NCBI RefSeq assembly: GCF_017348835.2
Contig: NZ_CP071375.1
Direction: 5' to 3' (one strand)
DNA length: 64,000 nucleotides
Origin: Escherichia coli
GTDB lineage: Bacteria > Pseudomonadota > Gammaproteobacteria > Enterobacterales > Enterobacteriaceae
The translations under genes were made by a program, and so were the position numbers. Of this stretch, positions 15,280 through 29,483 are shown in pieces. How positions within the stretch are numbered: the stretch's first letter is position 1; the number at the start of each line of letters is the position of its first letter. Below the pieces are notes generated by a model. It was not told where the DNA came from. It made no database searches and worked only from the letters and a program-made list of their open reading frames with translations.

Positions 15280-15399
15280 ATGCCTGGCAGTTCCCTACTC
15301 TCGCATGGGGAGACCCCACACTACCATCGGCGCTACGGCGTTTCACTTCTGAGTTCGGCATGGGGTCAGGTGGGACCACCGCGCTACTGCCGCCAGGCA
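15280..15399 (-). rRNA. rrfG: 5S ribosomal RNA
   Basis: 120-nt reverse-complement match to the E. coli 5S sequence (TGCCTGGCGGC...CTGCCAGGCAT). Confidence 0.95.
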
Positions 15400-15493
15400 A
15401 ATTCTGTCGTATTAACCCGCTTACCGCCGGTTAATCTAATCTGTATCAGGCTGAAAATCTTCTCTCAATCCGCCAAAACACCTTCGGCGTTGT

Positions 15494-18398
<2,905 letters not shown>

Positions 18399-18591
18399 TC
18401 ACAACCCGAAGATGTTTCTTGCGATCCATCATCTTGTTGCGAAAATTTGAGAGACTCACGAACAACTTTCGTTGTTCAGTGTTTCAATTTTCAGCTTGAT
18501 CCAGATTTTTAAAGAGCAAATATCTCAAACATCACCCGAAGATGAGTTTTGAGATATTAAGGCAGGTGACTTTCACTCACAAACCAGCAAG

Positions 18592-18667
18592 TGGCGTCCC
18601 CTAGGGGATTCGAACCCCTGTTACCGCCGTGAAAGGGCGGTGTCCTGGGCCTCTAGACGAAGGGGAC
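18592..18667 (-). tRNA. gltW: tRNA-Glu (anticodon UUC), 16S-23S spacer tRNA
   Basis: 76-nt reverse-complement match to GTCCCCTTCGTCTAGAGGCCCAGGACACCGCCCTTTCACGGCGGTAACAGGGGTTCGAATCCCCTAGGGGACGCCA. Confidence 0.95.
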
Positions 18668-18752
18668 GTATCAGTCTGCTTCGCAAGACGCCTTGCTTTT
18701 CACTTTCTATCAGACAATCTGTGTGAGCACTACAAAGAACGCTTCTTTAAGG

Positions 18753-20294
<1,542 letters not shown>

Positions 20295-20737: not shown

Positions 20738-23311
20738 TTACTGGACGGCGACAATCCGGTCTTCATTAACTTCCAGGCGAATCACTTTACCCGGAACCAA
20801 TTCACCAGACAGTATTTGCTGTGCCAGCGGGTTTTCGATCTGCTGCTGAATTGCACGTTTCAGAGGACGTGCACCATAGACCGGATCGTAACCGTTCTCG
20901 CTCAGCAGTTTCAGCGCCTCGTCAGAAATGTGGATTTCATAACCACGTTCTTCCAGACGTTTATACAGACGTTTCAATTGAATCTGCGCAATCGACGCAA
21001 TGTGCTGTTCACCCAGCGGATGGAAGACCACCACTTCATCGATACGGTTAATGAATTCCGGACGGAAGTTATGGCTAACCACACCGAGCACCAGCTCTTT
21101 CATGTGCGCATAATCCAGTTCACCGAAGCGTTCCTGAATCAGATCGGAACCGAGGTTAGAGGTCATAATGACAACCGTATTACGGAAGTCGACCGTTCTC
21201 CCCTGCCCGTCAGTCAGACGCCCATCATCCAGTACCTGCAACAGAATATTGAAGACATCCGGATGCGCTTTTTCCACTTCATCCAGCAGGATGACGGAAT
21301 ACGGACGACGACGCACCGCTTCGGTCAGGTAGCCACCTTCTTCATAACCGACATATCCCGGAGGCGCACCAACCAGACGAGACACCGAGTGTTTCTCCAT
21401 AAACTCGGACATATCGATACGGACCATCGCCTCGTCGCTATCAAACATAAAGTTCGCCAGCGCCTTACAAAGCTCTGTTTTCCCCACACCAGTTGGGCCG
21501 AGGAACAGGAATGAACCAATCGGGCGATTTGGATCCGCCAGCCCCGCACGGCTACGACGAATAGCGTTAGATACCGCATCAACCGCTTCGTTCTGACCAA
21601 TTACGCGATGGTGCAGTTCTTGCTCCATACGCAGCAGTTTTTCGCGCTCGCTTTCCATCATGCGAGAAACCGGAATCCCCGTCCAACGCGCCAGCACTTC
21701 AGCAATTTCAGCGTCGGTCACTTTATTACGCAACAGACGCATAGTTTTGCCTTCGAGCTGCGTTGCGGCTTCCAGTTGCTTTTCCAGTTCCGGGATTTTG
21801 CCGTATTGCAGTTCAGACATCCGCGCCAGGTCACCCACACGGCGAGCCTGTTCAATAGCGATTTTCGCCTGTTCCAGTTCCGCTTTAATGGTCTGCGTAC
21901 CAGAAAGCGATGCCTTCTCTGCTTTCCACTCTTCTTCTAACTCGGAGTACTGACGTTCTTTGTCGCTCAGTTCTTCGTTGAGCATATCCAGACGTTTTTT
22001 ACTGGCTTCATCAGACTCTTTCATTAACGCCTGTTGTTCCAGTTTGAGCTGGATGATACGGCGATCGAGTCGGTCGAGTTCTTCTGGTTTTGAGTCAATC
22101 TGCATACGAATGCTGGATGCTGCTTCATCGATCAGGTCGATGGCTTTATCCGGCAGCTGACGGTCAGCAATGTAGCGATGAGACAACGTCGCCGCTGCAA
22201 CAATTGCCGGGTCAGTAATTTGCACATGGTGGTGCAATTCGTAACGTTCTTTCAGGCCACGCAGAATCGCAATGGTATCTTCAACAGAAGGCTCGGCAAC
22301 AAACACTTTCTGGAAACGACGTTCCAGCGCAGCATCTTTTTCGATGTACTGGCGATATTCGTCAAGCGTCGTGGCACCTACGCAGTGCAATTCACCACGC
22401 GCCAGCGCCGGTTTCAGCATGTTTCCGGCGTCCATTGCGCCATCGGCTTTACCCGCGCCGACCATGGTATGTAATTCGTCGATAAACAGGATGACGTTGC
22501 CTTCCTGTTTGGCAAGGTCGTTAAGCACGCCTTTTAAACGTTCTTCAAACTCACCGCGATATTTCGCCCCAGCCACCAGCGCGCCCATATCCAGCGCCAG
22601 TACCCGGCGGCCTTTCAACCCTTCCGGCACTTCGCCGTTGATAATACGCTGCGCCAGACCTTCAACGATGGCAGTTTTACCGACGCCGGGTTCACCAATC
22701 AGTACCGGGTTATTTTTAGTACGACGTTGCAGCACCTGAATGGTACGGCGAATTTCTTCATCACGACCAATCACCGGATCGAGTTTGCCCTGTTCGGCTC
22801 GTTCGGTAAGGTCGATGGTATATTTTTTCAAAGCCTGACGTTGGTCTTCAGCACCTTGATCGTTCACGCTTTCACCTCCACGCATTTGTTCAATCGCTTG
22901 AGTAATGTTGGCGGTGGTCGCCCCTGCTGCTTTCAGGATGTCGGCCAGTGTGCCGCGAGACTCAAGTGCCGCCAGAACGAACAGTTCTGACGAGATAAAG
23001 TTATCACCACGTTTTTGCGCCAGCTTGTCGCAAAGATTAAGAACGCGCACCAGATCCTGTGATGGCTGGACATCACCACCAGTACCTTCAACCTGCGGTA
23101 AACGATTTAATGCCTGATTGATATCTGTGCGCAACTGGCCAGCATTTATGCCAGCGGATGTTAATAAAGGACTAACCGAACCCCCTTCCTGATTCAGCAG
23201 GGCGCTCATTAAATGAAGTGGTTCGATAAATTGGTTGTCGTGCCCGAGTGCAAGTGATTGGGCATCGGCAAGAGCAAGCTGGAATTTATTAGTAAGACGA
23301 TCCAGACGCAT
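20738..23311 (-). CDS. clpB: Hsp100 disaggregase chaperone ClpB
   Basis: ORF 20738..23323; start chosen at [10 protein letters not shown] (857 aa); two AAA+ modules with Walker A/B and a coiled-coil middle domain. E. coli ClpB is known to have a second internal GTG translation start producing a shorter isoform. Confidence 0.95.
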
Positions 23312-23344
23312 AACTCCTCCCATAACGGATCAAAGTTGCTACTG

Positions 23345-23382
23345 GAGATTAAATGAGGTCATCCCTCAATTATTCAAGGTTA
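23345..23382 (-). promoter_or_regulatory. Sigma-32 (heat-shock) promoter of clpB
   Basis: Minus strand reads CTTGAA - 14 nt - CCTCATTTA, fitting the sigma-32 consensus (CTTGAAA / CCCCATnT). Confidence 0.6.
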
Positions 23383-23440
23383 TTGACCAGATTAATGTGA
23401 AAAGAAAATCACGCGTACCGGATCGTCTTGATTCTTTAGG

Positions 23441-26044: not shown

Positions 26045-26058
26045 CAGCCCTTGAGCTG
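26045..26058. repeat. Left copy of the IS4 target-site duplication
   Basis: cagcccttgagctg immediately precedes the IS4 left end; the identical 14 bp recur at 27485..27498. Confidence 0.75.
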
Positions 26059-27484
26059 TAATGCCAGTCAGTTAAGCAACTGACTGGCTCTTTTTCGGGG
26101 CTGTGGGGTATTTCCAGGGCCTCTCCTTTACCACTCTCGGGAAGGCCCTTTCCCTTCTTGTCGGTAATTTCACAAGTTGTCCCATACTTGCAAGATCGCG
26201 CATCAGCTCCGGTATACGTCCCGGTGAAGCGCCCTGCAATGTCATCAGCATTCTCATCACCATTCCGCATGATTCTGAGAAGCTCAGTTGATTTGGCCAG
26301 TAACCTTTCAGATGTTCCGCCATTTTAATCATCTGATATCTCACCAGATTATAAGCCAGTAAGACACCCCACAGCTCTTGCTCCACAAGCTCAGGCTTTT
26401 TACTTCTCAGCGTCAGCCTGCTCAGTTGCATCGTCTGTTTTATCTCCCTGTATCCCAGTTCGATTTCCCAGCGATGACTGTACAGATCCGCCATTTCTCC
26501 TCCGGGGAAGCGCATGGCGTCCGTCATCGACGTCAGCAGATGGCAGACTTTTCCTTTGCGCGTCACGGTCAGCAGGCGGGCTGTCACCTCATTTCCCAGT
26601 CCCGGCCACTTTTTTCGTGCCTGCGGGCTGGTTTTCAGCTTCACCAGATGATCGCCTTTACCCAGTTTTCTGATCTCTTCATATTGCGCTCCCTTTCTGA
26701 GAGGGATCATCCAGTGGCGGTGTTCTCCCGCCAGGCTCCAGGCATTTAACAATCCCAGTGAGTAATAACCTTTATCCATTAACGTCAGAGTGTTATCGCC
26801 GGTTTGTTCTATAAGTTGCTCAGCAAGCTCATTTTCGCTGTTCTTCATCGTGCCGAAGGCTGCAGCCGTCAGCAGATGGCTGGTCAGTTCCATCTGGCAG
26901 ACCATTTTGACCTGCGGGTAGAGCGCCGGGGTCCCGGCATGTGTCTGGCGAGGGAAGGCTGCATCGTTCTCTGGTGTATCCGGTGTGCGCCAGAACACAC
27001 CATCGATGGCCAGCAGGGTCAGGCCGCACCAGTGCGGATGCGGCGTGGCGTTATGCCAGAGCTGCGCTGTTTTCGTGAACACGCGGCGGACAGCCTCACT
27101 TCCCAGGCGCTGGCGGGCCTGAATAACAGCACTGGGGGCAACGAAGGTGCGATTGCCCGGCAGCATGATGTCCAGGCGATTCACAATCTGGTGAAGAGGT
27201 TCTTTACGCTCAAGCGCCATGCCAACAATACACCAGACCATCATTTCGAGGGGAAGACGGCGCTTGCGTAGCGTTACAGTACCTGATTCGGCAAGGCAAC
27301 GAGAGATGAGTTCGGGGTCGAGGTAATCTCCCAGAGAAGTCAGTGGGTTACGCAGAGAATCGTAACGGGATACCAGATCAAGAGCCTGTCCAATGTGCAT
27401 AAAAAAATCCGGAAACGAGTGAGCGTTTCCGGATTCTTACACAGCCACTGGATCGGTCAACTGATCCTTAACTGATCGGCATTA
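26059..27484 (-). mobile_element. IS4 insertion sequence, complete (1426 bp)
   Basis: Terminal inverted repeats taatgccagtcagttaag... (left) and ...cttaactgatcggcatta (right), a single 442-aa DDE transposase ORF, and flanking direct repeats. Confidence 0.9.
26072..27400 (-). CDS. insG: IS4 transposase
   Basis: 442-aa ORF ([16 protein letters not shown]...) recognised as the IS4-family DDE transposase. Confidence 0.9.
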
Positions 27485-27498
27485 CAGCCCTTGAGCTG
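27485..27498. repeat. Right copy of the IS4 target-site duplication, continuing into the original T tract of the bamD terminator
   Basis: cagcccttgagctg followed by ccgttttttt. Confidence 0.75.
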
Positions 27499-27677
27499 CC
27501 GTTTTTTTATTCTGTCAGTTGTGAAACTGAAGCGATTTAGTCGCTATCGATCTCATCAAATATGGCTCGCTTTGAGATATTCCTCAAGTAAAAAAACACC
27601 TCTTCCTGCGATTTCTCACAAAAAAGATTCGTTGACAAAAAGTGACAAAATTATGAGATTTCCATCACACATTTTGA

Positions 27678-28073
<396 letters not shown>

Positions 28074-28094
28074 TCCTTTATATTGAGTGTATCG

Positions 28095-28120
28095 CCAACG
28101 CGCCTTCGGGCGCGTTTTTT
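28095..28120 (+). terminator. Probable raiA intrinsic terminator
   Basis: Hairpin aacgcgccttcgggcgcgtt followed by a T run. Confidence 0.55.
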
Positions 28121-28176
28121 GTTGACAGCGTGAAAACAGTACGGGTACTGTACTAAAGTCACTTAAGGAAACAAAC

Positions 28177-28224
28177 ATGAAACACATACCGTTTTTCTTC
28201 GCATTCTTTTTTACCTTCCCCTGA
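28177..28224 (+). CDS. pheL: pheA operon leader peptide (Phe-rich, 15 aa)
   Basis: ATG at 28177 encoding [15 protein letters not shown] then stop; seven Phe codons. Confidence 0.85.
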
Positions 28225-28270
28225 ATGGGAGGCGTTTCGTCGTGTGAAACAGAATGCGAAGACGAACAAT

Positions 28271-28301
28271 AAGGCCTCCCAAATCGGGGGGCCTTTTTTA
28301 T
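28271..28301 (+). terminator. pheA attenuator terminator
   Basis: Hairpin aggcctcccaaatcggggggcct followed by tttttta, between pheL and pheA. Confidence 0.7.
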
Positions 28302-28322
28302 TGATAACAAAAAGGCAACACT

Positions 28323-29483
28323 ATGACATCGGAAAACCCATTACTGGCGCTGCGAGAGAAAATCAGCGCGCTGGATGAAAAATTATTAGCATTACTCGCA
28401 GAGCGGCGCGAACTGGCCGTCGAGGTGGGAAAAGCCAAACTGCTCTCGCATCGCCCGGTACGTGATATTGATCGTGAACGCGATTTACTGGAAAGATTAA
28501 TTACGCTCGGTAAAGCGCACCATCTGGACGCCCATTACATTACTCGCCTGTTCCAGCTCATCATTGAAGATTCCGTATTAACTCAGCAGGCTTTGCTCCA
28601 ACAACATCTCAATAAAATTAATCCGCACTCAGCACGCATCGCTTTTCTCGGCCCCAAAGGTTCTTATTCCCATCTTGCGGCGCGCCAGTATGCTGCCCGT
28701 CACTTTGAGCAATTCATTGAAAGTGGCTGCGCCAAATTTGCCGATATTTTTAATCAGGTGGAAACCGGCCAGGCCGACTATGCCGTCGTACCGATTGAAA
28801 ATACCAGCTCCGGTGCCATAAATGACGTTTACGATCTGCTGCAACATACCAGCTTGTCGATTGTTGGCGAGATGACGTTAACTATCGACCATTGTTTGTT
28901 AGTCTCCGGCACGACTGATTTATCCACCATCAATACGGTCTACAGCCATCCGCAGCCATTCCAGCAATGCAGCAAATTCCTTAATCGTTATCCGCACTGG
29001 AAGATTGAATATACCGAAAGTACGTCTGCGGCAATGGAAAAGGTTGCACAGGCAAAATCACCGCATGTTGCTGCGTTGGGAAGCGAAGCTGGCGGCACTT
29101 TGTACGGTTTGCAGGTACTGGAGCGGATTGAAGCGAATCAGCGACAAAACTTCACCCGATTTGTGGTGTTGGCGCGTAAAGCCATTAACGTGTCTGATCA
29201 AGTTCCGGCGAAAACGACGTTGTTAATGGCGACCGGGCAACAAGCCGGTGCGCTGGTTGAAGCGTTGCTGGTACTGCGCAACCACAATCTGATTATGACC
29301 CGTCTGGAATCACGCCCGATTCACGGTAATCCATGGGAAGAGATGTTTTATCTGGATATTCAGGCCAATCTTGAATCAGCGGAAATGCAAAAAGCATTGA
29401 AAGAGTTAGGGGAAATCACCCGTTCAATGAAGGTATTGGGCTGTTACCCAAGTGAGAACGTAGTGCCTGTTGATCCAACCTGA
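28323..29483 (+). CDS. pheA: Bifunctional chorismate mutase / prephenate dehydratase (P-protein)
   Basis: 386-aa ORF with N-terminal chorismate mutase, central prephenate dehydratase and C-terminal ACT domain. Confidence 0.95.

Follow-up and report, generated by a model that had tools for sequence, protein, structure and literature searches.

The window analysed here, a 64,000-nucleotide stretch of Escherichia coli DNA, carries the gene order known from K-12 (yfiH-rluD / bamD / raiA / pheL-pheA / tyrA-aroF / yfiL), and between raiA and pheA it contains a short leader gene with several RNA elements, which together with their surroundings are as follows:

26059-27484, IS4 element, its transposase ORF (26072-27400) on the minus strand, with Nterm_IS4 and DDE_Tnp_1 domains
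27732-28073, raiA, upstream of pheL, with a Ribosomal_S30AE domain
28097-28116, terminator of raiA, upstream of the phe promoter (terminator scan)
28122..28151, plus strand, probable phe operon promoter (read by eye and deduced)
28165..28169, plus strand, Shine-Dalgarno sequence of pheL, AAGGA, 7 nt 5' of the ATG (sequence)
28177..28224, plus strand, pheL leader peptide gene (translation; RefSeq annotation on identical sequence)
28191..28267, plus strand, 1:2 'protector/pause' hairpin (minimum free energy (MFE) folds; Rfam consensus structure; compensatory changes)
28226..28281, plus strand, 2:3 antiterminator (ribosome-mask folding; energies)
28271..28299, plus strand, 3:4 intrinsic terminator, the attenuator (terminator scan; folds; compensatory changes)
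28323..29483, plus strand, pheA, the regulated gene, 386 aa (ORF list; Pfam CM_2 and PDT; RefSeq annotation)

Farther away in the window lie four additional RNA loci:

15282-20294, minus strand, complete rRNA operon (5S, 23S, tRNA-Glu, 16S), as in the K-12 map
23292-23430, sRNA RyfD, upstream of clpB, as in the K-12 map
46061-46423, plus strand, tmRNA gene ssrA, tag ANDENYALAA
54310-54385, minus strand, lone tRNA-Met (CAT), about 8 kb downstream of ssrA

The lone tRNA-Met may be part of an element that has integrated at ssrA, a site which in K-12 presumably holds the CP4-57 prophage.

Translation of the leader gene from the ATG at 28177 to the TGA at 28222-28224 yields 15 sense codons, seven of which specify Phe (plus strand: ATG AAA CAC ATA CCG TTT TTC TTC GCA TTC TTT TTT ACC TTC CCC TGA), which bears out the 15-codon leader with seven Phe codons described in the initial annotation. 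The Phe residues occupy codons 6, 7, 8, 10, 11, 12 and 14 (28192-28218) and fall into three blocks (28192-28200, 28204-28212 and 28216-28218). The locus thus offers what is expected of a Phe leader, namely a translatable short ORF with a run of Phe codons and a Shine-Dalgarno sequence. The gene ends in the 'shifty stop' UUC_CCC_UGA (28216-28224, TTC CCC TGA), by which, together with a conserved nucleotide sequence, the enterobacterial 'group 1' pheL has been defined (PMC3082878), and the present leader belongs to this group. When the reading frame is shifted to +1 at CCC_UGA, 51 codons are open and the stop closing them (28376-28378) lies 53 nt beyond the A of the pheA start codon, and the resulting 66-aa product fits the ~9 kDa product of an earlier study (PMC5373646); in the zero frame, 15 codons follow the pheL UGA up to a UAA at 28270-28272.

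The product of the downstream ORF (28323-29483) matches Pfam CM_2 with 69.8 bits and PDT with 211.7 bits and, carrying both domains, the ORF is therefore pheA, encoding chorismate mutase / prephenate dehydratase. It lies on the same strand immediately 3' of the leader, the T tract of the leader terminator ending 24 nt before the pheA ATG. Shine-Dalgarno sequences have been reported to precede both pheL and pheA (PMC3082878), the latter being AGG at 28313-28315 in the window.

Upstream of pheL, a perfect -35 hexamer (TTGACA, 28122-28127) is separated by an 18-nt spacer from a weak -10 hexamer (TACTGT, 28146-28151), and these probably form the phe promoter. A sigma-70 consensus scan of 27600-28500 called no promoter site at its thresholds, because the weak -10 hexamer agrees with TATAAT at only 3/6 positions and therefore falls below the threshold. 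From this arrangement, the phe transcript would start at about 28157-28160. The T tract of the raiA terminator merges into the -35 TTGACA, so that terminator and phe promoter are contiguous; in MG1655 the same terminator also forms the 3' end of an annotated sRNA, RaiZ (27959-28127 region).

The identity of the leader is supported by several comparisons. The Rfam model Phe_leader (RF01859) matches 28176-28301 over its entire length (model 1-125/125) with 132.3 bits, the gathering score being 55 (E = 1.5e-24), and the match was also recovered in a gathering scan of the whole window. Between the raiA stop codon and the start of pheA (28075-28330), 256/256 positions are identical to E. coli K-12 MG1655, in which the ORF is annotated as pheL (b2598), upstream of pheA (b2599); it was stated initially that the element appears fully intact, and the lack of any difference over this region agrees with this. 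RefSeq annotation on identical or near-identical sequence, including two listed matches of 100% identity, gives raiA, 'Phe leader region', 'pheL: phe operon leader peptide' and pheA. A weaker Phe_leader match on the minus strand (33.6 bits, short of the gathering score of 55) was rejected as an echo of a largely self-complementary region, and the sub-threshold Rfam matches Arrc14, engA, sX6 and KCNQ1OT1 were dismissed as well.

Within the species, a 1.2-kb stretch around the leader was matched in 5425 of the 5426 complete E. coli genomes, in every case in the chromosome, and the 203-nt promoter-leader segment shows at least 95% identity in 5425 complete genomes. The leader is 100% identical to that of the window in 8/30 evenly spaced E. 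coli genomes. Five sampled variants differ at one to a few positions: all five encode Thr as the fourth residue (by ACA in four and by ACG in one), and apart from this there are a change in a loop, changes compatible with G-U pairing and, in one case, the loss of 1 nt from the G run of the terminator. At this codon (28186-28188), the window and K-12 have ATA, a rare codon for Ile; the corresponding RefSeq proteins are WP_010723158.1 (Ile4) and WP_001386991.1 (Thr4). The Ile4 (ATA) allele of K-12 appears to be the minority allele of pheL.

The sequence downstream of the Phe codons contains the helices of an attenuator. Segment 1 (28191-28214), which overlaps the Phe codons, and segment 2 (28244-28267) form the 1:2 hairpin, which has a small hairpin at its tip (28215-28220 / 28227-28232) and, folded in isolation, an energy of -31.2 kcal/mol. 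The 3:4 terminator consists of a stem of 10 pairs, seven of them G-C (28271-28280 / 28286-28295), closed by a 5-nt loop (28281-28285), with an energy of -18.5 kcal/mol. Directly 3' of this hairpin (28271-28295) the sequence reads TTTTTTATT, and the terminator scan places the T run (T6) at 28294-28299. An intrinsic terminator hence stands between leader ORF and pheA, as in attenuators of the trp type, and the GC-rich hairpin with T tract noticed initially was found as described. In the 2:3 antiterminator, 28226-28233 (UGGGAGGC) pairs with 28274-28281 (GCCUCCCA) and 28235-28236 with 28271-28272; its core is formed by GGGAGGC (28227-28233) and GCCUCCC (28274-28280), and it encloses an internal hairpin (28237-28245 / 28254-28265). 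The antiterminator has an energy of -22.5 kcal/mol, and an extended form, in which 28217-28224 is free and binds the terminator's 3' arm (28284-28291), reaches -36.6 kcal/mol. The 161-nt leader as a whole has an MFE of -52.9 kcal/mol versus -32.1 +/- 3.8 in 200 dinucleotide shuffles (z = -5.5), none of which (0/200) folded as well.

Since helices 2:3 and 3:4 share nucleotides 28271-28281, they are mutually exclusive: this 5' arm of the terminator finds its partner either in 28285-28295 (terminator) or in 28226-28236 (antiterminator). The folding proposed in the initial annotation, in which an absence of mutually exclusive stem-loops would have spoken against attenuation, therefore came out in its favour. 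The window suggested for it (28225..28310), however, omits segment 1, which is needed for the protector/pause hairpin, and a range of about 28190-28300 is the informative one. Likewise, of the extent first assigned to leader and attenuator (28177-28310), the start holds, whereas the end lies some 10 nt past the T tract.

How the position of a ribosome would select between these folds was modelled co-transcriptionally, folding being confined to the RNA that separates the leading edge of the ribosome (+10 or +13 nt) from the polymerase. With no ribosome present, the 1:2 hairpin forms once segment 2 has emerged (-32.7 kcal/mol), leaving segment 3 unpaired, and then the terminator forms (total -51.7). 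With the A-site on codons at 28192-28213, 28226-28236 binds 10/10 of the paired segment 3 nucleotides before segment 4 exists, and this sequestration by a ribosome on the Phe codons is the same at +10 and +13 nt. Up to an A-site at about 28207-28210, the antiterminated state is the energy minimum of the whole leader, too (-36.8 to -29.8), because 28217-28224 then engages the 3' arm of the terminator as well. When the A-site is at Pro15, a partial antiterminator (7/10 nucleotides, +10 setting) or none is formed, and on the stop codon GGGAGGC is covered, the antiterminator is absent and the terminator is present. At both of these codons, the terminator forms together with the 1:2 hairpin or with a hairpin of segment 2. 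The Phe codons (28192-28218) overlap segment 1 (28191-28214), the ribosome position selects the fold in silico, and the behaviour predicted by this model is the three-state behaviour of classical attenuation.

An earlier variant of the calculation, equilibrium folding of the whole leader with 30-nt ribosome masks, gave the antiterminator only at A-site positions 28195-28204, and some late Phe codons favoured the terminator. It was replaced because RNA 5' of the ribosome could pair with the 3' end and the order of transcription was ignored. The outcome at these late Phe positions implies that the attenuation model needs a kinetic, co-transcriptional order of folding.

Comparison across species provides a further line of evidence. 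Searching one genome per species with the pattern TTYTTYTTYACNTTCCCCTGA, we obtained at least 120 loci, of which 110 were kept as leaders of Enterobacterales, amounting to 105 distinct sequences; 10 of the matches (in Lachnospiraceae, Omnitrophota, Nanoarchaeota and others) lack GGAGGC after the stop codon and were discarded as chance. Among the matches listed, leaders occur in Escherichia, Citrobacter, Enterobacter, Klebsiella, Serratia, Pantoea, Erwinia, Pectobacterium, Yersinia, Rahnella, Photorhabdus, Hafnia and other genera. The 105 leaders encode peptides of 15-21 residues with variable N-termini and a shared 10-residue core (or close variants of it). It should be noted that the search pattern fixes 28204-28224, i.e. 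the last seven codons, so that invariance there is due to ascertainment; the informative compensatory pairs lie outside the pattern.

In the alignment of these 105 leaders with the window (106 sequences), standard pairs make up 95.9% of the 4022 cells of the terminated fold (1:2 plus 3:4) versus 45-60% with slid partners. Six pairs of this fold changed on both sides (82 cells), a cell count reached by 0/500 shuffles and exceeding that of all slid controls. Compensatory changes across species affect 2-3 pairs of the terminator, and the clearest examples in both helices are:

28202/28256, helix 1:2, C-G to U-A in 7 sequences
28203/28255, helix 1:2, A-U to U-A in 9 sequences
28273/28293, terminator, G-C in 45 and A-U in 55 sequences
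28280/28286, terminator, C-G to U-A in 19 sequences

For the antiterminator, 91.9% of the cells are pairable versus 39-54% in slid controls. Covariation of the antiterminator was not detected in the 106 sequences (score 0.065 versus 0.064 in shuffles), since its GGGAGGC/GCCUCCC core is essentially invariant. The change of 28280 from C to U, accompanied by G to A at 28286, turns the antiterminator pair 28227/28280 into a G-U wobble, and both folds hence tolerate it. Beyond the functional question, the comparative set documents one RNA that is constrained by a reading frame and three alternative helices at once.

Two deviating cases were encountered in this set. In Candidatus Symbiopectobacterium sp. 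'North America' (L086:6309-6440), near a contig end, leader and terminator stem are kept and the T tract is replaced (…CAGGGGGCTAATGAGATGG…); the attenuator of this symbiont may be disrupted. In Yersinia leaders (e.g. L011, L051 and L108), no pheA start follows within about 30 nt after the T tract, in agreement with the IS1541 insertion reported for this genus (PMC3082878).

Taken together, the element is most probably (we estimate about 97%) the pheL-pheA ribosome-mediated transcription attenuator of Escherichia coli. The classical Phe-responsive attenuation control of pheA proposed at the outset is thereby supported by the RF01859 match, the identity to K-12, the domains of pheA and the alternative folds. 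The element is already known and well characterised, and it is ordinary and intact. In the published description of attenuation at E. coli pheL, 1:2 is the pause structure, 3:4 the attenuator and 2:3 the antiterminator (Gurvich et al., PMC3082878). For an identical K-12 sequence, basal pheA expression amounts to ~10% of the starved level (PMC3082878). A NusA-enhanced transcriptional pause with a half-life of ~17 s was measured in the pheL leader, and pausing in vitro was not regained when the pause hairpin carried compensatory mutations (PMC9291695).

Applied to the window, transcription would start just after the raiA terminator and give a leader of about 140 nt, in which segment 1, the region of the Phe codons, and segment 2 are expected to form the long hairpin that, according to the literature, pauses the polymerase for ribosome loading on pheL. 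When Phe-tRNA(Phe) is plentiful, the ribosome would reach CCC-UGA, cover GGGAGGC (28227-28233) and block the antiterminator, and 3:4 with its T tract would terminate transcription before pheA. When Phe-tRNA(Phe) is scarce, the ribosome would stall on the seven Phe codons and occupy segment 1, freeing 28226-28236, which could then capture the 5' arm of the terminator (28271-28281) as it emerges; the terminator would fail to form and transcription would read through into pheA. In the case of no translation, both 1:2 and 3:4 should form, leading to termination. Polymerase pausing and the in vivo response to Phe are in this scheme taken from the literature or deduced.

The near-invariance of the leader and the retained CCC_UGA could be taken as signs of a second function beyond attenuation, either of a trans-acting RNA of ~140 nt or of a sensor of the nascent peptide or of the termination rate that tunes basal pheA expression. 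We regard such a function as very improbable; it is not required, because coding capacity and three alternative helices suffice to explain the conservation. In its first form, the terminated leader RNA of ~140 nt would also act in trans as a small regulatory RNA, which we consider a little less probable still. The strong GC hairpin with a U tract at its end resembles sRNA terminators, the nucleotide sequence is unusually conserved in Enterobacterales even outside the columns fixed by the pattern, and there is a weak resemblance to the Actinobacillus sRNA model Arrc14; this match, however, reaches 26.7 bits, far below the gathering score of 99, and is driven by the terminator, while the conservation is accounted for by the overlapping coding and three-helix constraints. 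A literature search for pheL with Hfq/sRNA found pheL named only among known leader peptides and no trans role.

Its second form, in which the leader peptide or its extension by +1 frameshifting or UGA readthrough is a functional small protein or a nascent-peptide sensor, seems yet more doubtful. The 10-residue core recurs in 105 leaders, but it is partly fixed by the search pattern, which covers the last seven codons. The +1 frame is open from 28223 to the stop at 28376-28378, and 15% +1 frameshifting at CCC_UGA, stimulated by the nascent peptide, has been reported and judged incidental (PMC3082878); the length and sequence of the extension differ between genera, and tRNA(Pro) mutants with altered frameshifting leave pheA expression unchanged (PMC3082878). 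Heavy ribosome occupancy on the pheL UGA as well as readthrough and +1 products were detected in K-12, but these products are attributed to its weak RF2 (PMC5373646).

The only strain-specific feature near the leader is the IS4 insertion, which sits between bamD and raiA inside the terminator hairpin of bamD and is absent from this site in MG1655. Its junctions, located by 12-mer mapping, are flanked by a target duplication of about 11 bp (26048-26058 = 27488-27498), and 69 of the 5426 complete E. coli genomes share this IS4/flank junction, among them several of pig origin. That the attenuator is decayed or was disabled in this strain, for instance by this nearby IS4, and does not regulate pheA can practically be dismissed, since raiA and its terminator separate IS4, which ends at about 27484, from the phe promoter some 640 nt further downstream, 28075-28330 shows zero differences from K-12, and pheA is a full-length ORF of 386 aa. 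The insertion, ~690 bp upstream of the leader, leaves phe promoter and leader untouched.

Judging from sequence, the attenuator should thus confer normal Phe-responsive control of pheA on this strain, and the leader is the sequence to remove or mutate when engineering phenylalanine overproduction.

Among the known systems, the element corresponds in all respects to the K-12 pheL/pheA attenuator (RF01859; group 1 of PMC3082878), sharing its promoter-leader-attenuator sequence, its peptide, UUC_CCC_UGA and the 1:2, 2:3 and 3:4 helices. The neighbourhood is likewise the same, with raiA-pheL-pheA and, on the opposite strand, tyrA-aroF. The strain differs from MG1655 in the IS4 insertion upstream of raiA, whereas within the element no difference exists. 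With trpL, hisL, leuL, thrL and ilvL, the leader shares a short ORF rich in codons for the end product, a pause hairpin, an exclusive pair of antiterminator and terminator and the read-out by ribosome position. The regulatory codons, in contrast, are for Phe (7/15) instead of the two Trp codons of trpL, and the amino-acid leader sequences are not homologous. To our knowledge, no additional protein repressor of pheA acts at the phe promoter. The pheM leader of pheST likewise encodes a Phe-codon-rich peptide controlling transcription termination by Phe-tRNA(Phe), but it belongs to another locus and differs in sequence and Rfam model, while the element described here matches RF01859 and precedes pheA, not pheST.
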